A stretch of 64,000 bases of DNA from a virus (Duplodnaviria; Heunggongvirae; Uroviricota; Caudoviricetes). The stretch is taken from the IMG/VR virus record IMGVR_UViG_3300028840_008157; one strand, written 5' to 3'. The translations under genes and the position numbers were made by a program. Of the stretch, positions 2,926-59,453 are shown in pieces. The number at the start of each line of letters is the position of its first letter. Position 1 is the first letter of the stretch. The notes beneath the pieces are model-generated. The model was given only the letters and a program-made list of their open reading frames with translations. It was not told where the DNA came from and did no database searches.

Positions 2926-4212
2926 TCACGCCTTCATGTTGTGAACGGGCTTGATCCTGGCGACGATCCTGGCCGTCGGGGCGATGGCCTCCTCGATGAC
3001 CCTGGCGTCCTTGTAGGCGCCGGGGGCCTCGTCGAGGGGGACGTTGGTGGTGAAGACGCCGGCCTGGCGCATCTGGTCCTGGGCGTCCCTGAGGGAGAGC
3101 TGCTTCCTGGCCTTGGTCCGCGACAGCACGCGGCCGGCGCCGTGGGGGGCGGAGTGGTTCCACTCGGGGTTGGAGCGGCCCTCGCAGATCAGGATGCCGT
3201 CGCGCATGTTGAAGGGGATGACCATGCGCTCGCCCCGGTAGGAGCGGATGGCGCCCTTGCGGATGGTCATGTCGTCGAAGTCGATGAGGTTGTGGACGGA
3301 GGCGACGCGGTCCCGCTCGGTGGCGCCGAGGGCGGCCAGGACGTGCCCGATGATGACCTCGCGGTTCCAGTCGGCGTAGGCCTGGGCGAAGGCCATGTCG
3401 AGCATGTAGCCGGTCGCGTCGTCGCCGGTCAGGAACTCGAGGTGCTCGGGGACGCTGGCCCGCTCGGCGTCGCGCCTGGCCTTGAGGGCGTCGATCCGGG
3501 CCCTGCGCTCGCGGCCCATGCATTCCTTCTTGATCCTGGCCACCTCGGCCTTGAAGTCCGCCTTGGAGCCGCCCTGGGTCCTCTTCTTGGCGAGGCCCTG
3601 CCAGTAGTTGGCGACGCGGAGGCCGAGGTTTCGTGATCCGGTGTGGACGGTGACCCAGGCGTTGCCGTCGTCGTCCCTGCCGATCTCGACGAAGTGGTTG
3701 CCGCCTCCCAGGGAGCCGACGCTTCGGAGGACCTTGGTCGGGTCGGAGCCGACGCGCTCGCAGGTGGACAGGAACTCGTCGGCGGGGGACATGGCGACTC
3801 CGGCGTCGGCCCCGAAGAGGGCCTGGATCCTGGCCTTGTGGGACCTGAAGCGCTCCCAGGGGAAGGCGTCGATGGAGACGATCTTGGAGGGGTTGATCTC
3901 GAAGCCCATGGGGACGAGTCGGCGGACGCGGTGGTCGAGCATCTCGTGGTCGGGGAGGTCGGCCTTGCCGAGGTTGACGGAGCACACGCCGCAGCCGACG
4001 TCGACGCCGACGACGTTGGGGATGACCTTGTCGGTCAGCCTCATGGTGAAGCCGATGACGGAGCCCTTCCCGGCGTGGGTGTCGGGCATGATGGCGACGG
4101 GCTCGGAGAAGGCCTCGTGGTCGAGGAAGGTCTTGATCTGGTCGATGCATTCCGGCTCGACCTGGTCGATCATGACCTTGGCGGTCCCGTGTTTTCCCTT
4201 GAGCGTGATCAT
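2926..4212 (-). CDS. rtcB: RtcB family RNA ligase (tRNA repair)
   Basis: Start MITLKGKHG; motifs MPDTHAGKG, VGVDVGCG, GSLGGGNHFVE, HTGSRNLG, HNLID, IPFNM, SAPHGAGR, DEAPGAYK. Confidence 0.95.
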   Translation of the reverse strand: MITLKGKHGTAKVMIDQVEPECIDQIKTFLDHEAFSEPVAIMPDTHAGKGSVIGFTMRLTDKVIPNVVGVDVGCGVCSVNLGKADLPDHEMLDHRVRRLVPMGFEINPSKIVSIDAFPWERFRSHKARIQALFGADAGVAMSPADEFLSTCERVGSDPTKVLRSVGSLGGGNHFVEIGRDDDGNAWVTVHTGSRNLGLRVANYWQGLAKKRTQGGSKADFKAEVARIKKECMGRERRARIDALKARRDAERASVPEHLEFLTGDDATGYMLDMAFAQAYADWNREVIIGHVLAALGATERDRVASVHNLIDFDDMTIRKGAIRSYRGERMVIPFNMRDGILICEGRSNPEWNHSAPHGAGRVLSRTKARKQLSLRDAQDQMRQAGVFTTNVPLDEAPGAYKDARVIEEAIAPTARIVARIKPVHNMKA

Positions 4213-5169: not shown

Positions 5170-5607
5170 TCATCCTGCTGCTGGCCGGCTGCGGCGGCCG
5201 GCCCGCTCGCGAGACGGGCGGCGTGGACCCCGAGGTCTGGCGCCCGGACGTGAGCGAGGGGGAGGCGCGGGATCGGTGGGGGCGCTTGTTGCCTCCGCCT
5301 CGGCCCTGATCACGAATTCCTTCATGATGATCCTCATGGTCATCGACTCGACGGCGAGCCAGACGGCCTCGTTCCTGCCGAAGGGGGACACGTGGTTGAT
5401 CCCGTCGTGTCGCTTGTAGGGGACGCGGAACGGCCCGGTTCCCTGGAGGGAGGTGGAGGGGAGGAAGAGGCCGTTGATGACGCGTCGGGCGATCTCCTGG
5501 ACGGGGTCGCGCCAGCCCTTCGGCCTGGCGATCCTGCGCATGATGGCCTTGTCGACGTCCTCGCAGAGGCGGTCGATCTCGAGCGACGGCTCGATGGGGT
5601 GGTTCAT
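5170..5607 (-). CDS. hypothetical protein
   Basis: MNHPIEPSL start, coupled to the upstream gene by ATGA. Confidence 0.5.
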   Translation of the reverse strand: MNHPIEPSLEIDRLCEDVDKAIMRRIARPKGWRDPVQEIARRVINGLFLPSTSLQGTGPFRVPYKRHDGINHVSPFGRNEAVWLAVESMTMRIIMKEFVIRAEAEATSAPTDPAPPPRSRPGARPRGPRRPSRERAGRRSRPAAG

Positions 5608-35658: not shown

Positions 35659-36057
35659 ATGAAGACGAAAGAGGTCGAGAAGGAGCTTCGTTCGATGGGA
35701 ATCCATCCCCTGACGGAGGACGGGAAGCGGTTCTACATGTCCGGGGACTCTCGAGTGTTGATCCAGGAAAGAGACGGCGACATCCTGTTGTCAAGCGTCG
35801 TTGGACTCCTGTCCGAGGTTCTGGAACAGAACATCCCGAACGCCCTGGTCGCGTTCCTCGACGCGAACCAGCACCTACAGCCGGCTTCGCTTGGAATAAT
35901 GGTCGAGAACAACGACATGGCGGTAAAGGCGATGGTCCTCATCGACAGGGTATCCGACAGGGGATCGTTGCAGAGGTCGTTGAACGCGCTGGAGATGGCG
36001 ATCCGCGCGTCGGCGGCCATCATGTCTCAGGCGGCCTCGGAGGTCGCCCTGGCCTAG
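35659..36057 (+). CDS. YbjN/CesT (type III chaperone-like) fold protein
   Basis: GGAGG SD; LDANQHL..ASLGI pattern and size. Confidence 0.55.
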   Translation: MKTKEVEKELRSMGIHPLTEDGKRFYMSGDSRVLIQERDGDILLSSVVGLLSEVLEQNIPNALVAFLDANQHLQPASLGIMVENNDMAVKAMVLIDRVSDRGSLQRSLNALEMAIRASAAIMSQAASEVALA

Positions 36058-36128
36058 CATCGCCCGGGGGCGGTCGGCGTTGCGCGAACTGGCGTCGCGC
36101 TTTCGTCGACCGACCCCCAAAATCATGG

Positions 36129-36371
36129 TCATTTATGAAGGCATCCATTGCTGGTGTCAATCATGTAGTCCGGGTCGATAGTCGTGTGGTTATGGCCATC
36201 GGTAAGCCTTCCCCTGTACTGCCCGCATCGGGAGCATTTCTCGATGGTGGCGCGTAGCACGAGGCCCTTCCTAACGTCTCCCGTCAGGCTGCTTATGGCG
36301 TTGCCCTTGCACAGAGATGACGAGGTAACCTCCCAGAGGTGGGCTCCGAAAAGGCATCTGAGTGGCTTCAT
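36129..36371 (-). CDS. DUF1660-like small Zn protein
   Basis: LRCLFGAHLW...CSRCG. Confidence 0.6.
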   Translation of the reverse strand: MKPLRCLFGAHLWEVTSSSLCKGNAISSLTGDVRKGLVLRATIEKCSRCGQYRGRLTDGHNHTTIDPDYMIDTSNGCLHK

Positions 36372-36384
36372 CCCATCGCCCCTT

Positions 36385-36870
36385 TTAGGTCCCGTAAACT
36401 TCGAGTCTACGGAGGAACATCCTCGCCGACATGATGGGGAACGCGTTCATGTCCCCATGCAGCAGAAGGCTGGCGATTGCTGATCCTCTCTTGGCAGCCG
36501 CGTGGCAAATCTGGGCTTTGATGACGGGATGGGCGGCGTGAATTCGTTCCGGGTCGCTGGTGCAGATCACCCATCCCAACAGCAACCTCCTTGGATCGTG
36601 GGCCACCATGACGAAGGCTTCCTCGTCCTTGGCGAGGATTTCCCTCAGGACTTTCTTGATCCCCTCGACGAACTCATCGAACTCCTCCATGATGTCCTCT
36701 GGGACTGATCCGCGCCTGGAAATCTCCCGAACCTGACCGGATACCCAAGGTTCTGGCTTGGGAACCGGTCGCCTTGGCTGTGTCCCCCGTTTCTGGCTCG
36801 TCTCTTCTCCGGGTAGCGTTCCGGCGGCCATGGCGGCCGCGCCCCCGGCGATGAAGGTTCTACGATCCAT
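36385..36870 (-). CDS. protein with twin-arginine (Tat)-like signal
   Basis: MDRRTFIAGGAAAMAAG; GAGG SD. Confidence 0.65.
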   Translation of the reverse strand: MDRRTFIAGGAAAMAAGTLPGEETSQKRGTQPRRPVPKPEPWVSGQVREISRRGSVPEDIMEEFDEFVEGIKKVLREILAKDEEAFVMVAHDPRRLLLGWVICTSDPERIHAAHPVIKAQICHAAAKRGSAIASLLLHGDMNAFPIMSARMFLRRLEVYGT

Positions 36871-36871
36871 T

Positions 36872-37720
36872 TTACCTCTCTCCTTTCCCCGCTGGGTTAT
36901 CCATCCCGAGCGCCTGCCAGAACTCGTCGGCCGAGCTCTCGCGCCCGTTCATGTATTCCTCCATCTGCGTCTTCGTCTTGACCGGGACGTCGTCCATGTC
37001 GGGGACGCTCTCCATCAGGACGCCCTCGCAGGGTTCCATGACGAAGTCCATGTGTAGCAGCTCGGACATCGGCCTCAGCTTCTCGACCGACCCGTAATGA
37101 CAGGTGGCCGACCACGAGCATTCCATGGGGTTCGTCAGCTTGTTCCCGCATGGCATCTTCTCCACGTCGTACCTCGTCATCCATCCAACGGCCCATGACC
37201 GGCAGAGCTCGGAGTTGTAGACGAAGAAGACGAACCTGTCGGCGGACCCGGCGTCGGATTGCTTGACGATGACGCGGCGCGGGTTGAACTCGCCAAGCGT
37301 CCTTGTGATGACCATCACGTTCCCGAACTTGCGCCTGCCGCCCGATGGGCTGGCGTCCGGGGCGACGCGGTACAGCATCGACAGGCAGAGGTCGGCGGAG
37401 ATGGCCTTCATCTCGGTCTGGACGGACGTGTTCCTGAGCGTCGCCCTCGAGTGGGCGACCGATTCCATGAGCGTCCGGTCCATGGCGCGCCGGATGGCCG
37501 GAGGGGATGGTTCCGGGCCCTCCTTCGAGACGAGGCCACGCATGTAGCTGCGATGCTCCTCCGGCCATGACTTCTTGATGTCATCGATCTGGGACTGGAA
37601 GACCGAGTCGGCCTTGTACTTGAACGTCCCCTTCCGCAGGGAAGCCTCGAGGTTCTTCATGGCCTCCTCGGCCTGGTCCGCGTCCATGATGTGGGTTCCC
37701 TGCTTGTAGAAGTAGATCAT
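36872..37720 (-). CDS. hypothetical protein
   Basis: 282-aa ORF; GGAGG SD. Confidence 0.75.
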   Translation of the reverse strand: MIYFYKQGTHIMDADQAEEAMKNLEASLRKGTFKYKADSVFQSQIDDIKKSWPEEHRSYMRGLVSKEGPEPSPPAIRRAMDRTLMESVAHSRATLRNTSVQTEMKAISADLCLSMLYRVAPDASPSGGRRKFGNVMVITRTLGEFNPRRVIVKQSDAGSADRFVFFVYNSELCRSWAVGWMTRYDVEKMPCGNKLTNPMECSWSATCHYGSVEKLRPMSELLHMDFVMEPCEGVLMESVPDMDDVPVKTKTQMEEYMNGRESSADEFWQALGMDNPAGKGER

Positions 37721-37920
37721 GTCGATCCTCCGCGAATGTTTGACTGATCTGAGACGTATGCCCCGATTCTATGGCCCGGAAAGCGCCCGTCGAAGTACGC
37801 GTCGATGACGGGCTCGAAACGACTGGGCGGGGATTCCTTTCCTCGAGTCTGCCAGTAGTGGACATCCTGCCACAGGGGTGTCTTCTCTATGATGAGTTGC
37901 TGGAAACGGATGGGCCGCAT
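37717..37920 (-). CDS. hypothetical protein
   Basis: ATGA-coupled to the next gene. Confidence 0.5.
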   Translation of the reverse strand: MRPIRFQQLIIEKTPLWQDVHYWQTRGKESPPSRFEPVIDAYFDGRFPGHRIGAYVSDQSNIRGGST

Positions 37921-37925
37921 TACGG

Positions 37926-38330
37926 TTACTTCCCCTGAGTCCCGCTACATGATACGGGCTTCATCGGCAAGTCAAGCGATTTCCCGGAAAGCGCCAGCGG
38001 AAGCTTGCGAAGCCGTCCCATCATTTCCTTCACTGGAAGGAAGGCAACCGCCGTCATCTCGTCGCCGATGTCGGGCTCGATGAACGTCGCGTACGGCGAC
38101 TCCGGGATCGTCTCCGACGTCCACCCGGAACACAGGTCGGCCCACCAGTAGAGATCGTCCTCGCCCTTTACCTCGAGGAGGACGATGGTCTTGTGGTGCT
38201 CGGCCCATTCGCGAACCTAAGGCTCGTGACCGTTGCGGAGCATGAACTCCGCAACGGCGTGACAAGCCTGCACGGCCCGCTGGGCCGGGGACAGGTCCGA
38301 CCTGACGAGGACGTACAGTTTCTCGTTCAT
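37926..38330 (-). CDS. PTH2-like peptidyl-tRNA hydrolase with in-frame TAG at codon 38 (38217-38219); requires amber read-through
   Basis: Manual translation: MNEKLYVLVRSDLSPAQRAVQACHAVAEFMLRNGHEP*VREWAEHHKTIVLLEVKGEDDL...FIEPDIGDEMTAVA..LRKLPLA; family motifs continue in frame across the TAG. Confidence 0.85.
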
Positions 38331-38674
38331 GAGACCACCGCCATTCCGACGGCCCGGCAAGCCCTCGCGAGGGCGCGAAGTCTACGGAGCGCCCCGTAGG
38401 CGACGCGGCTGGGCCGCTTCGCGTGGTTCCGGAGCAACCCCTCGTCGATCATGGCTTTCACCTGTTCCTTGGTGATCTCCGCGATCTGGTCGGGGTCGTA
38501 GTCGAAGGCCTTCGCGATGGCTTTCTGGGTCAACAACACGGACGCCTTTCGCTTCAACCCGACGTACTCCTTCCACCTGGGGTGGCGGGGGTTGATGAAG
38601 CAGTCCTTCTTGAGCTTGAAGATCGCCATCGAGACGGCCTTCGTCTGCTGGGTGAGGCTGTTCTTGATCGTCAT
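38327..38674 (-). CDS. basic hypothetical protein, coupled to the PTH2-like gene
   Basis: AAGGAG SD; its TGA overlaps the ATG of the PTH2-like gene. Confidence 0.75.
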   Translation of the reverse strand: MTIKNSLTQQTKAVSMAIFKLKKDCFINPRHPRWKEYVGLKRKASVLLTQKAIAKAFDYDPDQIAEITKEQVKAMIDEGLLRNHAKRPSRVAYGALRRLRALARACRAVGMAVVS

Positions 38675-38698
38675 CTTGTTTCTCCTTCGGTTCTAATA

Positions 38699-38716
38699 GG
38701 TCCATTTCGATGGACC
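38699..38716 (-). promoter_or_regulatory. hairpin between the leader peptide and the next RBS
   Basis: GGTCCAT-CGAA-ATGGACC. Confidence 0.55.
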
Positions 38717-38747
38717 CCGTTTCAGAAAATGGGGAAAAAGACGACGA

Positions 38748-38780
38748 TCATGGGCCTCGGATCATCTAGGTCATGGTCAT
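38748..38780 (-). CDS. putative leader peptide MTMT(TAG)MIRGP
   Basis: AAGGAGG then ATG ACC ATG ACC TAG ATG ATC CGA GGC CCA TGA. Confidence 0.6.
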
Positions 38781-39094
38781 TCCTCCTTTCTTTCCTTGAT
38801 CATCTCCAACGCGGTCTCCGCGGACACGTTCCAAAAGTCCATCGCGCCGCTGACCTCGTAGATTTTCTTGACGTGGACCTTCCATGGCCAAAACGGCGCT
38901 TCGCCGCCGCTATTGATTCCGGCGAGTATCCTGGCGTCGTCGTCCTTCTCGTCCTCGAGAAAGTCGATCAGCTCGTCGAGTGATTGGAAGTACTGCGAGT
39001 GGCGGGAGACTTTGTGGCGCGTACAACCGCAATTGCAGGATTCAACTTCGTTGTCTCGGTCATATACGAGGAGGTAGCCGGTTACCTATGTCAT
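38777..39094 (-). CDS. 105-aa hypothetical protein with in-frame TAG at codon 3
   Basis: ATG ACA TAG GTA ACC GGC TAC..., then open (VTGYLLVYDRDNEVESCNCGC...MIKERKEE) to a TGA overlapping the leader ATG. Confidence 0.6.
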
Positions 39095-39101
39095 GTTATT
39101 T

Positions 39102-39177
39102 TGGCGCTTCCGATGGGAATCGAACCCATACGGCCGGGTTTAGAACCCGGTGCTCTGCCTAGTTGAGCTACGGAAGC
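39102..39177 (-). tRNA. amber suppressor tRNA (anticodon CUA), tRNA-Trp-like body, encoded CCA
   Basis: GCTTCCG TA GCTC AACTAGGCA GAGC A CCGGG TTCTAAA CCCGG CCGT ATGGG TTCGATT CCCAT CGGAAGC G CCA; fully paired cloverleaf, 76 nt. Confidence 0.95.
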
Positions 39178-39197
39178 ACGTCCTCCTTTCGTTATTC

Positions 39198-39226
39198 ATC
39201 TTATACGCCAAAAATATACTTGTCAA
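39198..39226 (-). promoter_or_regulatory. sigma70-like promoter for the suppressor-tRNA operon
   Basis: TTGACA-17nt-TAAGAT, about 20 nt upstream of the tRNA. Confidence 0.7.
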
Positions 39227-39686
39227 CCTTTTCGTTTGTTCCTTCCACAGAAGGTTTTTGTTTGCGAATCACAATTGGGACACAGAAAACGAAGGTTTAT
39301 AAGACGATGGTCGTTACGTATCCCATTAACGTGATCCAAACGAAGAACGAGCGACTTGCCTTCCCATACTGGTTGCAGGCCACATGTAGCGCATTCGTAT
39401 TTTAATAGTTTATCTCTGAAAATAACCCTTCGAACCGCGTCCGAGGGCCGCAAGGTCGCCGACTTCCCCGTCCCCGCTCCGGCGGACAAGCTCGCCTTCA
39501 AGGGCTGACCTTACGCCTGCCTGGTCCCCCACCCCCCGCACGGCGGAGGGCGACCTGGCGGGCATCCTGACGGTATCGATAATTGCTTCCGACGATGGCC
39601 CTATTAAGCAATCGTAGTGCATGGGCAATGGAAATGCTGTTCTTGATGGCCGAAATGAAAACGTCGTCTTCTTCCCATCGATTCAT
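39223..39686 (-). pseudogene. HNH endonuclease disrupted by a roughly 124-bp foreign segment
   Basis: N-half MNRWEEDD...GSNYRY and C-half KYECATCG...LDHVNGIRNDHRLINLRFLCPNCDSQT are in different frames; AT-rich, with a GC-rich insert. Confidence 0.85.
39440..39563. repeat. about 124-bp dispersed repeat, copy 2
   Basis: Matches 880-1003 with about 3 substitutions and one extra C. Confidence 0.9.
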
Positions 39687-39768
39687 TTTTTATCCTTTCC
39701 TAACCCCCTTTAATCATACGGTTGTAGGTCAAAATCGAAAAGAAAACTCCTCCACGGGTAGGAAATCT

Positions 39769-39820
39769 TTGACAGTTGAGGTATAAGTAATCTTAGCGAC
39801 GTTGACAGTTGACTGTAAAC
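39769..39820 (+). promoter_or_regulatory. putative promoter/operator: TTGACAGTTGA twice, second copy part of an imperfect palindrome
   Basis: ttgacagttga at 39769 and 39802; ttgACAGTtgACTGTaaa; directly upstream of the MerR-HTH gene. Confidence 0.55.
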
Positions 39821-39832
39821 ATGAGGTGGACG

Positions 39833-42800
39833 ATGAACATCAAGGAAATGGCAGAACTGGCGACCACGATCATCGAGGAGAACATCGGACCGATCAACGT
39901 GGACGTCAGAACCATCAGGTATTACGAGACTTACGGGGTCATGGAGAAACCCCCCAAGAAGGGCCGCGAGAACGATTACGGGATCGAAAACCTCAAGCGC
40001 CTGGTGGCCATCAAGGCTCTCCAGTCAAGGGGCATCAGCCTTGGCCAGATCAAGAAAGAGAACGTAGATGTCGATGGCGTCCTGCGGAGCGTCGGGATCG
40101 ACCCGCTCGTCGTGGGTGCCTTCATCGAGAGGGAAATCGAAGAGTCTCGGGAGAAGCCCGAGAGGGAGGATGACATGAGCGTCAAGGGTCAAGCGGAACC
40201 GAAGAAGGAAAAGAAGAAGGAAAAGGAAGGGGGTTCTCCCTTGATCCTTCCGCCGGAGAAGGACGACAACAGCCTTTCCGTCGAGGTCACGAACCAGATG
40301 ACGTTCATGCCGATGAAGGACCGTCTCTTCGTCGGCTCATCGTTCGCGTTCGTCGACGGGCCGGACGACGAGATATCCAAGCTGATCTACGCCAAGCTAC
40401 ACGGGCAGCTCAAGAAATCCAAGAAGATGAAGCGCGCCGTCATACCCGTGTCCGGGGAGGTCGAGCTTTTGGGATGCGTCGTCAAGGGTGGCCGAGGGAA
40501 TAGAAACCAGCTCGGCGTCCTGGTCCCCGACAAGGACTCCTACAGGGAGGGCGACGACGTCGCCCGCGTACTCGTGTTCGAGCCCGAGAGCAAGGGCAAG
40601 TCCGTCCAGCTCGACGTCAAGCTCAACGGCGCGCCTCTCGACGTGATGAACGTCCCCATCGACGACAACGGCTGCGGCATCGCCCGCGTCCCCACGCTGG
40701 TCGCCGGGAAGTACGAGGTTCACGTGAATGGTAGCGGCGACTGCTCCTTCGAGGCCAGTCGTTACGAGCTCGACCCGCTGACCATCTCGGTTACGGCGTC
40801 CCGCAAGACCCCGGAGGGCATCGAGATCGACCTGTCTGCCGAGCGGTTCGGGAAGCCGATGAAGGGGAAGGCCGAGGTCAGGCTCATCGACGACGGAACC
40901 CCGATCTCCGAGCAGGTGGTCGAGTTCAAGGACGGCGTCGTGACGAGCAAGTGGGACGACCTCGGGGAGGGGAACGCCTCCGTCATGCTGACCCCCGCCG
41001 ACGACAAGTCGCTCATCGCGAGCGCGCCGATACTCGGCTCCAGGAGGGAGGAACGCGAGGACACGACCATCTCCCGCATGGGTCGCGTCATGACGGCGTC
41101 ACTGATGGCCTCGAAGGGCGCCCGTAAAGAGCGCGGCATCTACGTCTCGGAGGAATCCGTGACGAACGCGCCGATCTCGCTGGAGTCCGTCTTCTGCGAC
41201 AATGGAAAACTGAACCTCAAGTTTTCCGCCGACGCGTCCAAGGTGACGGTCGCGGTTTCCGACCCGTCCTCCGGTGAGATCGAGATCTACGACGTCGGCG
41301 ACGTCTCGAAGGGATCCAAGAGGTCGATCAAGGTCAACTCCGCGTTCGCCCTCGTCTCCGTCGGCGCGTTCGTCAAGGACAGGCCGTGGGAGGCCAACGC
41401 GACGGTGATCAACCCGTCGAGGGGCGAGTTCAAGCTGTCGATGCCTGGCGAGGGGTTGTTCGAGCCGGGTGACGAGATGGAGATCGACCTCACGTCCAAG
41501 GAGCCTTGCAGCGTGTTCCTCAAGGTCGTTGACACGCGCGTTAGGGCCATGTACGAGCCCGTGGTGGCCATCGCGTCCAAGGCCAAGTCCTGGTTCTCGA
41601 GGGAGATGCTCGGGCTGCTGACGGGAAACGCGTGGAAGCCCGTCATCGTTGACGGCATGTACCGATACATGAGGGGTTTCACGGGACCGACAGGTCCGAC
41701 GGGTTGGACGGGTTCCTCCGGCGCGAGCGGACACGGCTACCCGGGTGGCCGGCGGCGTCTGTCGCAGGCCAGGGTCATAAGCCGTCGAGGCGCGGTGCCC
41801 TACGACGACGCCATGACGAAGGGCGTTGCCGGATCTCAGGGTTCGTCCGGCGACCCGTCCTACCATGTAAGTTACCACGCGACGCCTGACTCGACCTTCC
41901 TCGGGACGGACGACCACAAGGTCTATGCGGCTTCGCTGGCCCCTCCGGCGGCGAACGCGATGGGCTCCGAGGAACTGACCTCCGGCGGGGGGATTTTCCT
42001 GTGTGACTCGATCAACGTCGAGATGCCAGAGGTCGCCGAGATGGAGTCGAGAAAGTCGGACGCGGACGTCGTCTTCTGCGACCTGCTCCGGGTGCCGAAG
42101 TCGGGGCGCAAGGTCAAGATCAAGCTGCCGGACAGGATCGCCTCGTACGACGTCAAGGCGTTCTTCGTCAGCGGCAACGATTGGTCCGAGGCGGAGGAGA
42201 AGGCCGTCGCCATCAAGCATCTCTACATCGAGCCAATGATCCCGGCCGTCGCGGTCCCAACGGACCAATGCCGCGCCGTGGTCGTCAACGGCAAGGACTG
42301 CGAGGCCATCGTCACGGTAAACGGCGAGAAGGTCGAGATCACGCGCTTCAAGACCCCCGACGGGGCTTCGGTCATGCTGACCTGGGCGGCCCTTCCCGGC
42401 GTTCACGAGGTCGCCGCGACCTACAAGGGACACTCCGACAGGGTGTCCAAGATCGTCGAGCCACCGGGCGAGGAGATCGTCCTGTCCCAGGAGACGCACG
42501 TCATGGCCAAGGGCGAGACGTACGAGCTCGAGGAGGACGCCCTGTCCGCGTACGTGATGCCGGGCCTCGAGGAGGAGCTGGAGACGGTCGTCCACGTGAC
42601 GGTCAACTACGAGCATTGCTGCTGCGAGCAGACGGCGGCCAAGATCGTCGCGGCCTGCGTGGCGGCGACGGTCGGCAACGACGGCGACAAGGCCAAGGCG
42701 TACAAGGCCATCGCCAACGGGCGCGCCCGGCTGAGGAGCCTCTACAACGGGGGCGCCTTCAACTACTATCCTGGGCACGGGGTCAACGCGTGGGCCTCCG

Positions 42801-43684
42801 ACCTGGCCGCGAGGCGCGTCGCCCAAGTCGACGTCAAGGATGCCCCGAAGGACGTCGCCGAGGCTCTCGACGACATCCGCAAGATGGGCGTCTCCGTCGT
42901 CGCCAGCGCCTCGTCCAGCTACCAGAGCGACCTGGAGGCCGCCTTCGCGAAGGGCGACTTCTCGTCCGTCTCGACGACCGACGCGATGACGGCGGCCTCG
43001 TCCGTCAAGGGCGGATCATCGATGGCCATCGCCGACGCCGCCTACGCGGCTTCGTGCCTGCTGCGATCCGGAAGGATCGCCCCGGGCATCCAGGTCGCCA
43101 ACGAGGTCGCCAAGGCCGTGGCCCCCGCGAAGGGGGGAGCCATGTACGGGACGAACGACATGCTCGGCTACCTGATGATGGTCATGTCCCTCTCCGATAC
43201 CGGCGTGATCCCCGCCTCGGGCGGCAAGGTCGTGGTCGACGGGGCGAAGAAGGACGTCGTCGACGCGACGAACGACCCGGCGACGAGGATCGAGGCGACG
43301 GACAATCCCGTGGCCATCCGTATCAACCGCGTCAAGAAGCTGCGGCTCGACGAGGAGACGTCGGAAGTACCGATCGAGGTCAAGCTCGTCGGGGCCAAGG
43401 GCAAGAAGGTGAAGGCCGGCCAGATGGCGCGGCTCGTCGTCCGGACGGACGGCTACAAGGCCGGGGACGTCGTGGTAGTCAGGCTTCCACAAGGACTCAG
43501 CCGGGTCGTCGGTGGAGGCAAGCAGAAGAAGTTCCAGGTCGACTTCGAGGGCAAAAACGAGGTTTCCATCGACCTCGTGGCCCATGAGGCGGCTGAGCAG
43601 CAGATGGGCGTAGTTGTCCGGAACATGTATGACTCGTCGAGGATCGGATCGGCGGGCTTGATCGACGTGAAGGTCGTCGCGTGA
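39833..43684 (+). CDS. MerR-type HTH fused to an alpha-2-macroglobulin-like thioester protein
   Basis: VRTIRYYETYG..P..GR...Y....L..L..IK.LQ..G.SL..IK (MerR); KLPDRIASYDVKAF; YEHCCCEQTAA (CxEQ); C-terminal VRLPQGL..RNMYD. Confidence 0.8.
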   Translation: MNIKEMAELATTIIEENIGPINVDVRTIRYYETYGVMEKPPKKGRENDYGIENLKRLVAIKALQSRGISLGQIKKENVDVDGVLRSVGIDPLVVGAFIEREIEESREKPEREDDMSVKGQAEPKKEKKKEKEGGSPLILPPEKDDNSLSVEVTNQMTFMPMKDRLFVGSSFAFVDGPDDEISKLIYAKLHGQLKKSKKMKRAVIPVSGEVELLGCVVKGGRGNRNQLGVLVPDKDSYREGDDVARVLVFEPESKGKSVQLDVKLNGAPLDVMNVPIDDNGCGIARVPTLVAGKYEVHVNGSGDCSFEASRYELDPLTISVTASRKTPEGIEIDLSAERFGKPMKGKAEVRLIDDGTPISEQVVEFKDGVVTSKWDDLGEGNASVMLTPADDKSLIASAPILGSRREEREDTTISRMGRVMTASLMASKGARKERGIYVSEESVTNAPISLESVFCDNGKLNLKFSADASKVTVAVSDPSSGEIEIYDVGDVSKGSKRSIKVNSAFALVSVGAFVKDRPWEANATVINPSRGEFKLSMPGEGLFEPGDEMEIDLTSKEPCSVFLKVVDTRVRAMYEPVVAIASKAKSWFSREMLGLLTGNAWKPVIVDGMYRYMRGFTGPTGPTGWTGSSGASGHGYPGGRRRLSQARVISRRGAVPYDDAMTKGVAGSQGSSGDPSYHVSYHATPDSTFLGTDDHKVYAASLAPPAANAMGSEELTSGGGIFLCDSINVEMPEVAEMESRKSDADVVFCDLLRVPKSGRKVKIKLPDRIASYDVKAFFVSGNDWSEAEEKAVAIKHLYIEPMIPAVAVPTDQCRAVVVNGKDCEAIVTVNGEKVEITRFKTPDGASVMLTWAALPGVHEVAATYKGHSDRVSKIVEPPGEEIVLSQETHVMAKGETYELEEDALSAYVMPGLEEELETVVHVTVNYEHCCCEQTAAKIVAACVAATVGNDGDKAKAYKAIANGRARLRSLYNGGAFNYYPGHGVNAWASDLAARRVAQVDVKDAPKDVAEALDDIRKMGVSVVASASSSYQSDLEAAFAKGDFSSVSTTDAMTAASSVKGGSSMAIADAAYAASCLLRSGRIAPGIQVANEVAKAVAPAKGGAMYGTNDMLGYLMMVMSLSDTGVIPASGGKVVVDGAKKDVVDATNDPATRIEATDNPVAIRINRVKKLRLDEETSEVPIEVKLVGAKGKKVKAGQMARLVVRTDGYKAGDVVVVRLPQGLSRVVGGGKQKKFQVDFEGKNEVSIDLVAHEAAEQQMGVVVRNMYDSSRIGSAGLIDVKVVA

Positions 43685-44335: not shown

Positions 44336-44896
44336 ATGAGGAAAAAGCTAGATCGCATCATCGTCATCGATGTTGAGTCGACCTGCTGGGATGACCGAGA
44401 GGAGGCCAAGAAGAATACCAGCGAGATCATCCAGATCGGCGTGGCCGCCCTGGACGTCAACACGCTGACCGTGCTCCAGAGGAGCGAGTACATGGTCAAG
44501 CCGGTCTTCTCGAAGGTCAGCGAGTTCTGCACGAAGCTGACCGGGATCACGCAGGAGGACGTCGACGAGGGCGTCGAATATCCGGAAGCCATCGCCGCGC
44601 TCGTCGAGGAGTACGAGGTCGAGCGCAGGCCGTGGGCCAGCTACGGGGATTATGACCGCAAGCAGTTCCTCCATAATTGCCGCCTTCGCAGCGTTCCATA
44701 CCCGTTCGGGGACCGGCACATCAACGTCAAGACGCTCGTTGCGTCTGCGATGGGATGGCCCAGGGAGGAGGGCATGGACGTCGCGATGAGTTTCATCGGC
44801 CTGGAGCTCAAGGGGGTTCATCACAGGGCCGGCGACGACGCGGCGAACGTCGCCAGCATCCTCGGGTTCGTCCTCCACGGGGTCAGGGAACCATGA
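44336..44896 (+). CDS. DEDDh 3'-5' exonuclease (ERI-1/KapD-like)
   Basis: VIDVESTCW, EIIQIG, FCTKLTGITQ, YGDYD, HHRAGDDA; TTGACG-16-TATCAT promoter at 44292-44319. Confidence 0.92.
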   Translation: MRKKLDRIIVIDVESTCWDDREEAKKNTSEIIQIGVAALDVNTLTVLQRSEYMVKPVFSKVSEFCTKLTGITQEDVDEGVEYPEAIAALVEEYEVERRPWASYGDYDRKQFLHNCRLRSVPYPFGDRHINVKTLVASAMGWPREEGMDVAMSFIGLELKGVHHRAGDDAANVASILGFVLHGVREP

Positions 44897-45084
44897 GGAA
44901 GGCGATTCGCAAGCGCGTCCCGATATTCCATCCCGTCGGGAGGTTCTTCTCCGCGTTCCCCTACGGGGTCAGGGTAAAGACGTTCACGGCGTTCTTCAGC
45001 GACAGGGAGGTTTTCCGGACGAGGAGGGTGATGTTCGCGGACGTCCAATCGCTGGATGAAAAGGAGAGGCCGACGCCACGATGA
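44893..45084 (+). CDS. hypothetical protein
   Basis: ATGA-coupled on both sides. Confidence 0.5.
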   Translation: MRKAIRKRVPIFHPVGRFFSAFPYGVRVKTFTAFFSDREVFRTRRVMFADVQSLDEKERPTPR

Positions 45085-45701
45085 AAAGCCCATTGGCCAA
45101 ACTATATGACGAGGTGGACAAGTTCGGATTTTCCAAGACCGCGAAGGAGCTTTGCGAAAAAGCCCTTTCGCTGGATGGGTTCGACGAGTATCCCGCCTCC
45201 CTCGACAAGCATCATTCGTTCGTTGGGGGGCTGGCCACGCATACGCTCGAGGCCCTCCGGGTCGCGAAGGCGCTCTGCAAGATAACGCCTGGCGCGTCGA
45301 GGGACGTCGTCGGTACGGCGGTCATATTCCACGACGTCGGAAAGTTGGAATGCTACGATCAAGTCCAGGAAGCCGGACCCGTCCGGGGATCGTTTTTCAG
45401 CGGCATTTACAAGAAGAACGAGCGCTACTTCGAATCCTACCACATCGTCATATCCTGGGAGATATTCAGGACCATGGTTTGCAAGTTCGTCTCGAGGCTA
45501 CCCGATGGTTTCGTCGAGCAGGTCAGTCATTGCATCCTGGCCCATCACAGGCTCAAGGAGAACGGAAGCCCGGTCAAGCCCGTGACCAAGGAGGCGTGGA
45601 TAACCCACGTGTCGGACTCCTCCAGCGTCACGATCATGTCCGACGAGTTCCCGTTGGCGAAGGATTACAAGGCTGGCGAGGTCACGTACCGGATACATTG
45701 A
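45081..45701 (+). CDS. HD-domain hydrolase (YhaM-like)
   Basis: PAS..HHSFVGGLATHT, HDVGK, HCILAHH, SP..P.TKEA. Confidence 0.9.
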   Translation: MKSPLAKLYDEVDKFGFSKTAKELCEKALSLDGFDEYPASLDKHHSFVGGLATHTLEALRVAKALCKITPGASRDVVGTAVIFHDVGKLECYDQVQEAGPVRGSFFSGIYKKNERYFESYHIVISWEIFRTMVCKFVSRLPDGFVEQVSHCILAHHRLKENGSPVKPVTKEAWITHVSDSSSVTIMSDEFPLAKDYKAGEVTYRIH

Positions 45702-55079: not shown

Positions 55080-56756
55080 ATGCCTCGCGAGAGCATGACC
55101 GTACTCGTCATCTCTTCCTCAGACGAATCCCGAGAGGCCGCCTACGTCGTCGTCAGCGGCCTGAAGGACAACGGTCATGACGGTCTCATCTGCTGCTCCC
55201 CTGAAGCCGAGACCAGGATCAAGCCCGACCTGAGGCTTGACGAGGAGACGAGCCTCGGCGGCGTCAGCGGCGTCGTCGTCCTTGACGACGGCGGAGACGC
55301 AGAAGCCTGCGCGAAGATCGTCTCGAGGGCCAACAAGGACGACCTCGTCGTGGGCGGCATCGGCCCAGGGTGCCTGATCATGGCGTCCTGCGGCATCCTG
55401 AAGGATCATTACGTTTGCGACGGCCTGCCCGAGGAGGCTTACAAGGGGAAGGGCGTCGAGAAGGTTGAATCCCCTTCCGTCCGCAGCGACACCGTCCTGA
55501 CCTGCTCCGACGTGAGGATGGCCGACGGGTTCCTGTCGCTCGTCATCGACGCGCTCGGAGGAAAGGCCAGGCGCGTGGTCACAGGTGACGACGCTCCGGT
55601 CACGGAGGCGAGCCTCCTCATCGTCGACGACACCTCGGCGTGGCCGGACTACTGGGGCGTCGCGAGGGAACTGGACAAGAAGGGGTGCCGGACGTTCATC
55701 GGGCGCTGGGAGGACGTCGACGTCGCTTCCGGGAGGGCCGGTTGCCTGTCGATGGGCCCAGACGGCGTCAAGACATGCATGACGGTCGGCATCCCCAAGA
55801 CGATATGGTTCAGGCAGCAGATGCCATTGCGCGACGCGGCCTGCGCCGTGTCCGAGCTGGAGTCGCTGGGATGCCGGAACGTCAACTCCTCGGAGTCCAT
55901 CAGGCTCGCCTCGGAGCCCCTTGACGAGCTGCTTGGCGGCGTCGTCGAGGTCGGGAAGCCCGACGAGCAGGGGTTCAAGGTGATCGCCAATCGTGGCGAA
56001 GACGGGTGGAAGGCCGAGGCGCTGGGTGACGTCCGCGAGGCCGTCGAGTCGGCATGCACCGCTTTCCAGTCATCCCTTGACGACCATGACGGCGCGAACA
56101 GCGTCAGCGTCCGGGTGACCCTCCGCGATGACCGCCCCACGATCAACGGCATCGACCCCCTGGATTCGGACATGGCCATCGACGCCCGCGGCGACGACCC
56201 CGTCACGCTCAGGGCCATCGTCGAGAGGGAGATGGCCCACGAGGGGATGTGGCTCCAGCCTGACGGCAGGCTGGCCATACTGGAGGACGGCCACTTCAAG
56301 AGGCTCCCCCCCGAGGAGGCTTTGCTCGACCTCAGGAAGAAGGTCCTGTCCGCCATCAGGAGGGAGATCGAGGAATCCCATCGGGGAAAGGAGGACGTCG
56401 CCATGAAGCGCGCGCGCAGGCTCTCGCGTCGCGCCAGGCACAGGTTCTTCCTCGCCTTCGAGCTGCTGGGCGCCAACGTGACGACGGCGTACGGCCTGTA
56501 CCCGTCCGGAGTCGCCGGACCGTGGGCTCACCTGGACATCCCGATGTTCGAGAGGGTCTTCCAGTGGCAGGAGGGCGACGACTGGCTGAAGGATCGGGAG
56601 AAGGCGATCAGCAAGTTGCCCAGGTACAACCCACAGTACGACTTGCACGGGTTCTACTTCAAGTGGATAGAGCCTAGGAACCTGGCGTACGCCTGGGAGA
56701 ATCGCTTCAACGAAGGGTCGTACCCGATGCGCAACGTACTCAACCTAAACAGGTAG
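55080..56756 (+). CDS. protein with a degenerate DJ-1/PfpI-like N-terminal domain
   Basis: ..VVGGIGPGCLIMASCGILKD...VRSDTVLTC resembles the DJ-1 fold. Confidence 0.65.
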   Translation: MPRESMTVLVISSSDESREAAYVVVSGLKDNGHDGLICCSPEAETRIKPDLRLDEETSLGGVSGVVVLDDGGDAEACAKIVSRANKDDLVVGGIGPGCLIMASCGILKDHYVCDGLPEEAYKGKGVEKVESPSVRSDTVLTCSDVRMADGFLSLVIDALGGKARRVVTGDDAPVTEASLLIVDDTSAWPDYWGVARELDKKGCRTFIGRWEDVDVASGRAGCLSMGPDGVKTCMTVGIPKTIWFRQQMPLRDAACAVSELESLGCRNVNSSESIRLASEPLDELLGGVVEVGKPDEQGFKVIANRGEDGWKAEALGDVREAVESACTAFQSSLDDHDGANSVSVRVTLRDDRPTINGIDPLDSDMAIDARGDDPVTLRAIVEREMAHEGMWLQPDGRLAILEDGHFKRLPPEEALLDLRKKVLSAIRREIEESHRGKEDVAMKRARRLSRRARHRFFLAFELLGANVTTAYGLYPSGVAGPWAHLDIPMFERVFQWQEGDDWLKDREKAISKLPRYNPQYDLHGFYFKWIEPRNLAYAWENRFNEGSYPMRNVLNLNR

Positions 56757-56768
56757 CGGGTCATATAC

Positions 56769-59453
56769 ATGATCATCGTCAAGAAGGCAGCGGAAGAGTT
56801 CAAGCCCTTGCGACCGGTTCGCAGGCCGCAAGTCCCGGCGACGCCAACGCCCTTCGAGGAGGAGGAACCCGGCGTCCCGGAGGAATATACCGGACCGTTA
56901 TTGGCCCCGCGGCCGCAGGCCCTCGTCGAGCCAGAACCAGAGATCCCGGAGCCGGCCGAGCCGGAGCCGGAAATCCCGGAGCCGGCCGAAGAGGAACCGG
57001 AAATCCCGGAGCCGGCCGACGAGGAAGGCGTCATGAGGGACGAGCCCGAGCTGCCCCTCGTCGAGAACAAGCCGAAGGTCATCATCAAGTCCCCGACCAA
57101 GCCGGTTCCCTTGGGGACGCCATCTCAAGAGTGGGGATGGGAGAGGAATGATCCAGGAATCGGACAGTCGATGGACGAGGACGAGGAGGAGGAGGAGGAG
57201 TCCCTGACCGACGAGCCGATCGCGACCCCGACGGAGATCACGTCGGAGATGGACGCGATGGGGCTCCACTTGTCTCAGCTTCTCGGCCCGATGAACGAGA
57301 AGAAGGAAGAGGCGATGAGGGCGGGCGGCGACGAGGCGGTGTACGCCCTCTGGGACGACCCCGAGTTCGAGCAGGCGCAGGAACAGGCGAGGTCCCTCAT
57401 AGACAAGATCGTCAACTCCAAGATGGAATTCCAACAGCGGCCAGGCGAGAAGCCTAGGGAGCCCCAGACCGCCGAGGACTACGTCAGGGACAGGCACAGG
57501 TCGCTAATCTCGCTCAAGCAGTCGAAAGGAGTTCCCTCGGAGCAGTTGCAGGAGATACCAGAGGCCGACGACGCCCTGTACGACATGATCATGGCGTTCG
57601 CCGAGAGCGCCCACGAAAACCCCGGGGCGAAGAACAGCCTGACGGCCTACATCATCGCCAACTGGCGCCGGTTCATGGAACCCCCCAATCCGTTCTATCG
57701 CTTCATGAAGTACATCAAGAACCCGAGGACCACGGTCACAGAAGAGGTTCGCAACGAGGGGGCCGAGCGAGGCTGGTCGTGGCCCAGGCAAGTACTCGAG
57801 CAGTACAAGCACGACGCCTGGGGCGACCCGAGCAAGCCCTATTCCCCAGAGGCTATCGAGGAGCGCGTCAGGAAGGGCGCGGAGTGGTGGGAGAAGATGT
57901 ACGAGCGCATCCAGAAGTCGGGCAAGGTGCTTCCCGACTACATGGAGGAGGCGGACCCCATCAAGATCAACCTCAAGAAGATGCCAGATGGCCGTTTCAA
58001 GGGCGATACCGCCGCCATCCGCATCATGTCCGAGGTCTTCGACTTCACGGCGCAATACCACCCCGACCTGGCGGAGGCGCTCGGTCTGATCACGAGGACT
58101 CCGGCCACGCTGAAGAAATATCGTCAGGACGGCGAGTTCGGCATCGACCCGAACAAGGCATTGAATCCGGACGTCCTAGACTGGTGGAACGAGATGTACG
58201 GCAAGATCTCGTCCCGCGTCGAGGGATTGCCCCCCATGAGCCTTTCCCAAGCCTCATCGCGTCAGGACATCGCCGCGATGAAGAAGGCGTTCGACGACTT
58301 CGTCGGGCGATATCCCAAGGAGGCCATCAACCTTGGGATGGCCGACGCCGACGTCATAATCTCGCATCCCTACAAGAGGAAGGGAAGCAAGTATTACATG
58401 TCCGACGAGATCACGGACCCGATCAGGCGCCAGGTCAGCGAGAAGAAGGTCCAGGAAGCCATCGAGTCAGCAGGAAAGACCAAGTCCATGAACGCGGAGG
58501 ACCAGGAAGGAAGGAAAATCCAGGTATCCGAGGAGGACGTCAAGAAGGAGACCGGCGAGCTCGCCGGCCTCGCCGAGGACAAGAAGATCGTCAACCCGAT
58601 GACCATGTTCCGGAGGAAGTACAAGCCGCAAGCCTACGGACCGGACACGCGGAGAAGTCCCAAGAAGAAGTCACGCGAGGACAAGAACAAGACCACCGAG
58701 GCGGGCATACTCTCCGCCGTCTGGGGGCGGCAGGTCGCCCGTGAATTCATGATGGGGAAGGACCTCGAGCGGAGGGTCAAGGCGACGCTCGATCACCACG
58801 TCTCGGACGACGAGCTGCACAACATCATGCTAGAGCACGACATCTCCCGAGCCTACGGGCCGCTGATCGACCTCTACTTCAAGAGGAAGCCGGAGGCGAT
58901 GAAGATCCTAGGCGAGGCCGGTCGCAAGTGGGAGTCCATCAGGCCTTCGTTCTCGATCGGCGCCACGCCGGAGGCCATCGAGAGGGAGACGAAGCGACGC
59001 CAGGCGGCGCTCTCGATCATCGCCGATCACGTCACGACGCCGAAGAGCGTCGAGAGGGAGATCGCCAAGACCATCGCCGGGATGCCCCTCGAGCGTGGCG
59101 GCTCGGGCGGATTGTACAAGCCGGAGCACATGGTCAACAAGGAGCTCGGCGAAAAGAACGCGCTGGAGAACGTGGCCACGATGAACGCCCTGTTCGAGCG
59201 GCTCCGGTCCAAGTTCCAGGGGCGCGGAGAGTCCAGGGGGCACGCGCTGAAGAAGTTCAACGACGCGGTCCGAGAGGTGGTCGGCAGGATGATAGGCGCC
59301 CTCGCCAACGACGACACGTTCGCCAGGATCGAGCGCGACCTCAGGAGCAAGGGATTCAATCTGAGGGGCGGATCATGGAGGTCCGCGCTCATGTCGCACC
59401 TGCGCATCGTCCGGTTCGCCCTACGAGGGCTCATGATGGAGAAGGTGTCATGA
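56769..59453 (+). CDS. 894-aa hypothetical protein with EPEIPEPA repeats
   Basis: MIIVKKA start; three 30-bp repeats at about 56930-57020. Confidence 0.85.
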   Translation: MIIVKKAAEEFKPLRPVRRPQVPATPTPFEEEEPGVPEEYTGPLLAPRPQALVEPEPEIPEPAEPEPEIPEPAEEEPEIPEPADEEGVMRDEPELPLVENKPKVIIKSPTKPVPLGTPSQEWGWERNDPGIGQSMDEDEEEEEESLTDEPIATPTEITSEMDAMGLHLSQLLGPMNEKKEEAMRAGGDEAVYALWDDPEFEQAQEQARSLIDKIVNSKMEFQQRPGEKPREPQTAEDYVRDRHRSLISLKQSKGVPSEQLQEIPEADDALYDMIMAFAESAHENPGAKNSLTAYIIANWRRFMEPPNPFYRFMKYIKNPRTTVTEEVRNEGAERGWSWPRQVLEQYKHDAWGDPSKPYSPEAIEERVRKGAEWWEKMYERIQKSGKVLPDYMEEADPIKINLKKMPDGRFKGDTAAIRIMSEVFDFTAQYHPDLAEALGLITRTPATLKKYRQDGEFGIDPNKALNPDVLDWWNEMYGKISSRVEGLPPMSLSQASSRQDIAAMKKAFDDFVGRYPKEAINLGMADADVIISHPYKRKGSKYYMSDEITDPIRRQVSEKKVQEAIESAGKTKSMNAEDQEGRKIQVSEEDVKKETGELAGLAEDKKIVNPMTMFRRKYKPQAYGPDTRRSPKKKSREDKNKTTEAGILSAVWGRQVAREFMMGKDLERRVKATLDHHVSDDELHNIMLEHDISRAYGPLIDLYFKRKPEAMKILGEAGRKWESIRPSFSIGATPEAIERETKRRQAALSIIADHVTTPKSVEREIAKTIAGMPLERGGSGGLYKPEHMVNKELGEKNALENVATMNALFERLRSKFQGRGESRGHALKKFNDAVREVVGRMIGALANDDTFARIERDLRSKGFNLRGGSWRSALMSHLRIVRFALRGLMMEKVS

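Follow-up and report, generated by a model that had tools for sequence, protein, structure and literature searches.

Release factor 2 (RF2) is encoded by prfB, whose expression is autoregulated by a +1 frameshift at a UGA codon with no special transfer RNA (tRNA). Among peptide motifs that stall ribosomes, RGPP gave the most robust arrest in section 8 of PMC12992588. In the portion consulted of Iyer et al. (PMC7824862), PTH2 of jumbo phages is proposed to serve ribosome rescue, and the paper on phage XacN1 (PMC5852040) reports two CUA tRNAs, with no target identified for them. The present study concerns a 64,000-nucleotide stretch of tailed-phage DNA (IMG/VR record IMGVR_UViG_3300028840_008157; the whole stretch is called the window) and, within it, a minus-strand operon at 37926-39226 that encodes a suppressor-type tRNA with the anticodon CUA, a short leader, a basic protein termed orfB, and a protein related to peptidyl-tRNA hydrolase 2 (Pth2). 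The best reading, to which we assign a probability of about 0.6, is that this operon works as a translational switch gated by readthrough and probably responds to weak termination. Within that reading, gating by in-frame stop codons together with a matching tRNA appears highly probable from the comparisons that follow. A description of such a module was not found in the literature searched, most subscription papers and supplements having lain outside the search, which does not prove absence from print; the words “phage,” “stop codon,” and “peptidyl-tRNA hydrolase” do not occur in the main text of PMC12992588, nor “suppressor” in the available text of PMC7824862, and PMC6514570 has no Pth2 passage; the text consulted of PMC11202043, PMC13023423, and PMC9262239 contributed nothing further.

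In order of transcription, the operon comprises the following elements.

39198..39226, minus strand: sigma-70-type promoter-like site, TTGACA-17-TAAGAT, with 10 of 12 consensus matches; function predicted.
39102..39177, minus strand: amber-suppressor-type tRNA, anticodon CUA (39143-39141), found with ARAGORN and Rfam; G1-C72, discriminator G, encoded CCA.
38777..39094, minus strand: open reading frame (ORF) 1, 105 codons, starting M-T-[TAG]-V, with the TAG at 39088-39086; coding score 22.
38748..38780, minus strand: leader ORF, MTMT-[TAG]-MIRGP-TGA, with the TAG at 38768-38766 and a strong Shine-Dalgarno sequence in front.
38665..38750, minus strand: predicted mRNA hairpin, -42.3 kcal/mol, z -3.7, with 0 of 200 shuffles as stable.
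38327..38674, minus strand: orfB, 115 amino acids, basic, ATGA-coupled to the Pth2-like gene; a divergent member of an unnamed phage family.
37926..38330, minus strand: Pth2-fold gene, 134 codons, interrupted within a variable loop by a TAG as codon 38 (38219-38217); assigned by profile, alignment, and a relative's model.

A first-pass annotation, made by a model from the letters alone, had described the promoter in front of a paired CUA tRNA, three in-frame TAGs, and a PTH2-like gene interrupted at codon 38. Its parts and their order stand, all three TAGs included; what it overlooked is the main gate, formed by the leader and the hairpin over orfB. The tRNA, called by ARAGORN with the expected CUA anticodon, scores 66.7 bits against Rfam RF00005 with no non-standard pair marked, and is the sole tRNA that ARAGORN finds in the window and the sole one found in G001, an IMG/VR record of 111 kb that is 67% complete. 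The promoter consensus is by itself weak, with three such sites per 2.5 kb versus 1.5 in shuffles. The leader is the local form of a conserved M-x-STOP...R-G-P-(P) leader described below. In the predicted hairpin the 5′ arm, beginning at the last stop of the leader, pairs with the orfB start codon and part of its Shine-Dalgarno sequence; by folding, opening the orfB site would take 25.1 kcal/mol if the ribosome stands at the TAG, compared with 6.8 once it has reached RGP. orfB itself is free of in-frame TAG. ORF1 has no Shine-Dalgarno sequence, its TGA overlaps the first leader ATG, and no homologue or family was found for it; its sole tie to the system is a start context that matches the conserved M-T-TAG-I/V gate of relatives, and its gate is the weakest of the three in the window.

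The association between suppressor tRNA and Pth2-like gene extends well beyond this genome. A degenerate pattern built from the window tRNA gave zero matches and a scan of viral contigs with a single protein gave no locus; the loci came from a search with an alignment of 30 Pth2-like proteins, which yielded 104 viral stretches, the best 80 of which were retained as viral loci with 4-kb flanks. Within those flanks a stop-type tRNA is present at 71 of the 80 loci, or 75 when four tRNAs with 8-nucleotide anticodon loops called by eye are included (L037, L038, L054, and L055). The 71 divide into 57 with CUA, 1 with CUA and an odd loop call, 1 with UCA, 1 with UUA, and 11 with an 8-nucleotide loop containing UUCA, and stop-type tRNAs account for 83 of 192 tRNA calls at the viral loci. 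Two of the remaining five loci are cut short (L053 and L077), one lies on a partial contig (L078), and two, L049 and L080, are true exceptions. Control loci, 120 of them mostly chance loci and 1 an RtcB locus, had a stop-type tRNA in 0 of 121 cases (0 of 13 tRNAs in 569 kb); the search that yielded those 120 had been aimed at 8-nucleotide-loop tRNAs and found none. The distance from tRNA to Pth2-like gene is often about 50 nucleotides or less, and the loci span phages of 26-64% GC content. A search of genomes from 185,579 species gave just 15 loci, every one of them on a contig of a metagenome-assembled genome, which points to an essentially phage system; 13 of these have a stop-type tRNA (12 CUA, 1 UUA). 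At one viral locus with a UUA tRNA, L024, whose record is cut upstream, orfB was not found. Judged by sequence, the pairing of suppressor tRNA and Pth2-like gene is thus a conserved, widespread phage module that is not peculiar to the window genome.

Upstream of orfB the relatives carry a conserved leader of the form Met-x(1-16)-STOP-(I/V)-x(2-12)-R-G-P-P or xxPP. In 54 distinct leaders the four motif positions hold Arg in 38, Gly in 28, Pro in 53, and Pro in 45; the Arg is encoded by both CGN and AGR codons and the Gly by all four of its codons, a spread indicative of selection at the peptide level. Most of the Pro codons are CCT and also serve as anti-Shine-Dalgarno sequence. Folding of 55 leaders predicts a median cost of opening the orfB site of 10.6 kcal/mol with a ribosome at the gate stop and 4.1 with a ribosome at the Pro codons; the median drop is 6.6 kcal/mol, versus 0.3 in 165 shuffles, and the drop reaches 4 kcal/mol or more for 80% of the leaders, compared with 4% of those shuffles. 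Mere passage of the ribosome to the leader's last stop could likewise melt the stem. A purine after a stop codon is a context that favors suppression, and a purine comes next after the gate TAG in 40 of 44 leaders. As side observations, the leaders of L023 (~3470-3730) and L028 (~3450-3709) appear to be readthrough extensions of a Cys/acid-rich ORF, with two TAGs before RGPP, and in L005 the leader is immediately preceded by an ORF (3251-3604) whose stop overlaps the gate region; from its GGQ motif we take this ORF to be release-factor-like.

The stop codon in the leader changes with the tRNA. Leaders detected by script pair a CUA tRNA with a TAG gate at 44 viral loci and 1 locus of a metagenome-assembled genome, a UCA tRNA with a TGA gate at L058, and a UUA tRNA with a TAA gate at L083. 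Where the tRNA has an 8-nucleotide loop, the gate is TGAA followed by a +1 shift at 12 of 15 loci: frame 0 stops again within one to five codons, and RGPP is reached only by the shift. There are 11 distinct leaders of this kind, counting that of L016, which the script missed, and that of L049, which has no matching tRNA; none occurs at any CUA locus. The 8-nucleotide loop may act either by four-base pairing or by slipping after three bases. Two Lak phage loci, in which TAG is recoded, combine a UUA tRNA with an MKLQHW-[TAA] leader; both loci score much higher for coding under table 15 (0.70 vs 0.36 in Lak-A2 and 0.68 vs 0.51 in Lak-B4). Since the Lak gate is TAA where TAG is sense, the gate must be a still-working stop, as competition with a release factor requires. 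Across the loci compared, gate codon follows tRNA anticodon (TAG, TGA, TAA, and TGAA with +1). A scan with the leader pattern returned 29 loci, 4 of them in frame, of which 2 were known contigs and 2 lacked both orfB and a Pth2-like gene; it revealed no new downstream gene.

The Pth2-like gene is often gated as well. The suppressor with a TAG-containing PTH2 gene that the first-pass annotation saw in the window recurs in related phages, with TAG in 25 of the 80 Pth2-like genes: 13 internally (codons 28-67), 15 just past the start by a heuristic call, and 3 at both places; internal TAA or TGA is present in none of the 80. The 14 CUA loci without a script-detected leader comprise 11 with an in-gene TAG, 2 with an upstream ORF in which TAG precedes RGPP (seen by eye), and 1 that is truncated. 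The flanks of gated loci gain 0.05 in coding under table 15 and 0.08 under table 4, and a gain no greater under table 15 than under table 4 indicates that the loci are not recoded. Cultured phages show the same arrangement. In the mycobacteriophages ET08 and Myrna, start-TAG-GTG precedes the hydrolase as annotated and a CUA tRNA follows just downstream, and these are the two examined among more than 200 cultured mycobacteriophage records with a Pth2-like gene; Serratia phage BF has MTH-TAG, a second TAG in the gene that follows, and, about 3 kb off, a CUA tRNA; and Acinetobacter phage ME3 has an MT-TAG start and a CUA tRNA. In XacN1 and RAS14, M-K-TAG opens a gene that fuses an HD-motif domain to a Pth2-like domain; the HD-motif label is ours, Pfam having called only PTH2. 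orfB was not detectable in ET08, Myrna, BF, ME3, XacN1, or RAS14. Gated Pth2-like genes paired or fused with an HD-motif domain, and not with orfB, form a second type of module, seen at L217 (2809-3370), L218 (1940-2800), L219 (from 2791), and L220 (1949-2809), and the HD-motif gene of BF carries its own in-frame TAG. In L075 and L076, about 1230 nucleotides upstream of the Pth2-like gene, the gated N-terminus (MT-TAG-IYKL...) is present a second time, joined to a long Cys/His-repeat ORF, presumably of homing-endonuclease type.

Comparison of 74 distinct CUA tRNAs shows the anticodon loop alone to be fixed (U33 in 73, A37 in 71, A38 in 63). The discriminator is A in 32, G in 24, U in 16, and C in 2, pairs 2-71 and 3-70 vary freely, and the 31-39 pair is non-standard in 26, so that acceptor-stem identity is not conserved. 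This variable identity, together with gates that fall in variable loops and tails, suggests that the inserted amino acid does not matter and that many of the suppressor tRNAs are weak decoders. A Trp- or Gln-specific suppressor was rejected. tRNA-Gln is recognized by a weak 1-72 pair, G2-C71, G3-C70, and G73; the window tRNA, with G1-C72, C2-G71, and U3-A70, lacks this set, and the family is free to vary at these positions. tRNA-Pyl has a short D-loop, a 6-bp anticodon stem, and no TpsiC motif. The window tRNA fits the standard RF00005 model and has G18G19 and TTCGA, and no pyl family was found in a Pfam scan of 29 window and locus proteins; within that scope a pyrrolysine reading was rejected as improbable, the tRNA-Pyl label given by ARAGORN following from the anticodon. 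Suppressor tRNAs stand in tandem pairs at many related loci, and in XacN1 (L226, 1468-3042) tandem CUA tRNAs lie 1 kb from a permuted transfer-messenger RNA call.

The read-through Pth2-like protein of the window matches PF01981 across the TAG (E 2.5e-6, residues 4-62; 28.1 bits, above the curated cut-off of 23), in keeping with the earlier assignment to PTH2, and the alignment with homologues continues past codon 38 to about residue 112. The NCBIfam equivalog cut-offs are far from reached (22 vs 126 and 18 vs 82). A model of the relative from L014, with a predicted local distance difference test (pLDDT) of 96, matches 2zv3, 3erj, 1q7s, and 1xty with template modeling (TM) scores of 0.76-0.81, and by this model the family has the Pth2 fold. 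The catalytic set of archaeal Pth2 is Lys/Asp/Thr. The family keeps the invariant Gln and His of the QxxH motif, an acid residue, and the Thr of the last strand; in 77 sequences the position of the archaeal Lys holds Q in 43, Y in 27, P in 5, and K in 0, that of the Asp holds E in 75 and D in 2, and the DAGxT Thr aligns with G. The resulting xQ/xY and EPDxG pattern is one that we take to be PTRHD1-like. We regard the protein as having a predicted tRNA-ester-handling-like fold and do not class it as a canonical Pth2. Its partner orfB falls in a family of 2,585 clusters that has no name and whose core, R-x-x-H-I-A-Y...G...I-E, is near-invariant and mostly missing from the window copy. The window orfB is tied to the family by tblastn matches to L001 and L004 (E about 2e-4) and by 22.5 bits against a family profile that includes it. 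A family member is modeled as a helical hairpin with short helices (pLDDT 93); no shared Pfam or PHROG match and no Atlas feature match were found, nor, for the three members tested, an NCBIfam match above cut-off.

Outside the operon the window phage uses TAG as an ordinary stop, as had been remarked earlier: 32 of the 101 genes called under table 11 in the 64-kb window end in TAG. Coding cover is 0.89 under table 11 vs 0.84 under table 15 with a gene model trained on table-11 genes, and for these 64 kb of the genome code-15 recoding was rejected. Backup stops are no nearer to the terminal TAGs than to other stops (p 0.57), which fits normally low suppression. As to the letters themselves, contigs of sequencing runs X1 and X2 (depth 28-30) show zero differences over 36000-39493, but both runs may be the source of the window DNA. 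The pieces listed for runs X3 and X6 leave the TAG positions uncovered, and G001, identical to the window over 37777-40477, is possibly the same assembly. Sequencing error was rejected, the strongest argument against error or chance being that relatives of about 50% protein identity (L001-L003, L081, and L086) have a TAG at the same codon 38 of the Pth2-like gene. The runs containing the window DNA are labeled sediment and seawater metagenomes, with no RNA run listed among them, a large phage is indicated by genes for RtcB, an HD protein, an exonuclease, and DUF192 together with the viral-collection record, and no RF-1 domain was found in G001, at its 67% completeness.

Collectively, these data suggest the following model. 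A ribosome terminating at the leader gate would leave the predicted hairpin shut. Where the suppressor tRNA outcompetes the release factor, the ribosome would read on to R-G-P-(P) and melt the hairpin, freeing the orfB ribosome-binding site, and the Pth2-like gene would then be translated through the ATGA coupling. The TAG inside the Pth2-like gene would act as a second gate that sharpens the response. With suppression normally low, gates in series would respond steeply once termination weakens. The tRNA would serve as a probe of termination efficiency, not as a code-changing adaptor, and any amino acid would do. The Pth2-like protein and orfB, or an HD-motif partner elsewhere, may clear peptidyl-tRNA or damaged tRNA from non-terminating ribosomes. 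The first-pass annotation had proposed a local contest between suppressor and release factor and not code-15 recoding; the covariation of gate and anticodon and the TAA/UUA pairing in Lak phages bear this out, and what it missed, besides the leader-hairpin gate, is that the arrangement is widespread. That the trigger is release-factor shortage or inhibition and the output tRNA clean-up, taken jointly, is an even bet. The broadest form of the model we put forward tentatively, at slightly worse than even odds: large phages would keep dedicated sensor tRNAs of no fixed amino-acid identity, which would do nothing but contend with release factors for the stop codon of a leader and so turn on a rescue module of two proteins whenever host termination is under attack or exhausted; in one branch such a tRNA would have become a natural UGAA decoder.

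Several observations weigh against this reading. Its switch behavior is predicted from sequence and folding, and its trigger, most likely shortage or inhibition of a release factor, is one that we purely infer. The GK lysine is kept in 0 of 77 family members, with Q or Y in its place and never K, so that enzyme activity may differ, and the orfB model gave no informative structural match, returning generic coiled-coils (Z under 8) and uncharacterized viral proteins. The window leader ends RGP-stop and not RGPP, a lone Pro in front of a stop being found in 9 of 54 leaders; many leaders are shorter than known arrest peptides; and the motif ranking favored RGPP, so that the enrichment of Arg and Gly is partly built in. 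The UCA/TGA pairing and the non-recoded UUA/TAA pairing rest on a single locus each. About nine pairs among the 80 loci are near-duplicates, and kin share designs, while the control loci are shorter, come from smaller phages, and are poorer in tRNAs. L080, a complete genome, has a Pth2-like gene with neither gate nor nearby suppressor, the Pth2-like gene of Aeromonas phage Ahp1 likewise shows no gate and no suppressor match, and RAS14 is gated with its suppressor not confirmed. In L049 a TGAA/+1 leader stands near a tRNA (5306-5379) whose odd 8-nucleotide loop lacks UUCA; its other three tRNAs include none of stop type.

The same gates would also serve a timer, in which the tRNA builds up during infection against a constant release factor and the operon, with other TAG-gated genes, comes on late. 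All the gating evidence fits this equally well, the tRNA shares the operon's transcription unit and its early-type promoter, and recoded stops have been proposed as late-gene regulators in the part of Borges et al. consulted (10.1101/2021.08.26.457843). However, no gated structural or lysis genes were found, the gate motif in the window is confined to this operon, and strong late suppression would lengthen the products of the 32 genes that end in TAG with no backup stop, so that we consider such timing unlikely. Less likely again is that the suppressor tRNA is itself the effector, for instance by disturbing host termination, and that orfB and the Pth2-like protein limit its effect, for instance by deacylation. 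The tight linkage of tRNA and Pth2-like gene, the active site altered relative to Pth2, and an output that would scale with suppression speak for such an antidote, but no target of strong suppression was found, and weak decoding is suggested by the 31-39 pair, which is non-standard in 26 of the 74 tRNAs.

Two further explanations fit poorly. Nonsense mutations might simply have built up under a suppressor, in early recoding or in a decaying operon, and made no switch. In the same partly consulted text of Borges et al. (10.1101/2021.08.26.457843), acquisition of a suppressor before recoding is described, the in-gene TAGs lie at tolerant positions, and ORF1 has no homologue. Yet the stops cluster in one operon across phages of widely differing GC content, inside a conserved leader-hairpin; they change in step with the anticodon, and TAA takes over where TAG already encodes an amino acid; and flank coding gains no more under table 15 (0.04) than under table 4 (0.07). 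Neutral decay was accordingly rejected as very improbable, being largely refuted by the covariation of gate and anticodon. Least probable of all is sensing independent of the tRNA, by near-cognate readthrough or by P-site slippage as in prfB, with the tRNA a passenger. The L049 leader without a matching tRNA would fit it, and prfB is the precedent for a +1 shift at UGA with no special tRNA, but the codon before TGAA is CTC, TTC, TTG, or ATG, for which re-pairing after a +1 slip is poor as judged by eye, and the match between gate and anticodon would be left unexplained. The readthrough-gated switch remains the reading that we prefer.

Other features of the window are recorded here in their own right. 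On the plus strand, a 558-amino-acid gene ending in TAG (55080-56756) is followed four codons on, in the same frame, by an 894-amino-acid gene (56769-59453); readthrough of the TAG at 56756 would give a 1457-amino-acid fusion, a further suppressor target or a chance arrangement, and neither gene has a Pfam match. A low-GC ORF remnant with CxxC (39223-39501, minus strand) stops at the -35 box of the operon promoter; Pfam gives weak zinc-ribbon matches only, and we assume its motif to be HNH-like. A short segment appears to be repeated at 39439-39563 and ~870-950, with extra contigs and doubled depth, and ORFs at both places contain the peptide SEGRKVA(D/E)FPVP. Divergent from the operon, a 1283-amino-acid protein (39833-43684, plus strand) has a MerR helix-turn-helix followed by alpha-2-macroglobulin-like and Ig-like matches. 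Genes for RtcB RNA ligase (2926-4212, minus strand), an exonuclease (44336-44896, plus strand), and an HD-domain protein (45081-45701, plus strand) are possibly an RNA-repair kit.

The module offers a possible answer to the question of why jumbo phages with the standard code carry suppressor tRNAs, and it suggests that infection puts translation termination under a pressure not yet recognized; it also draws attention to the orfB family, with its roughly 2,600 unnamed clusters. Annotation pipelines cut these genes short or miss them: none is annotated in Serratia phage BF, and in ET08 the gene was started after the TAG. The 8-nucleotide-loop branch, if true, would be a natural stop-to-frameshift tRNA that comes with its own test sequence, of relevance to code expansion, and the cultured mycobacteriophages with a tRNA and an in-gene gate make the idea testable in a laboratory host.

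Among known systems, prfB is alike in that an in-frame stop senses a release factor, and the 8-nucleotide-loop variant also shifts +1 at UGA; it differs in that here the suppressor or expanded-loop tRNA is encoded, a leader-hairpin intervenes, and the output is not a release factor. With the Pth2 family (PF01981) the protein shares the fold and the QxxH Gln and His, the acid residue, and the last-strand Thr, whereas the GK lysine has become xQ/xY and the DAGxT loop EPDxG. Like the attenuators with RAPP/RGPP motifs (ApcA, ApdA, ApdP, and SecM, as presented in the main text of PMC12992588), the module has before the regulated gene an upstream ORF that in many relatives ends in an RGPP-type motif, and in the window in RGP-stop, and a ribosome at the motif is predicted, here in silico, to unfold a hairpin that covers the ribosome-binding site of the next gene; unlike them, its leader family is 5-25 codons long, has no secretion signal, and places the motif behind a stop read by a dedicated tRNA. 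With the stop-recoded phages of codes 15 and 4, as far as the consulted text of Borges et al. (10.1101/2021.08.26.457843) describes them, it has in common a phage suppressor tRNA, in-frame stops, and proposed post-transcriptional regulation, but here TAG remains a common stop, the gates are found in a single operon, and the tRNAs have no conserved identity; the module of the recoded Lak phages uses TAA, another stop. Finally, the 8-nucleotide-loop tRNAs resemble the engineered quadruplet, or +1, suppressor tRNAs, in the parts of PMC9094753 and PMC4764823 consulted, in having an 8-nucleotide loop whose four central bases are complementary to a four-base codon with a stop as its first three letters. 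In contrast to the engineered forms, this variant, found at related loci and not in the window, is natural, phage-encoded, and paired with a regulatory leader.

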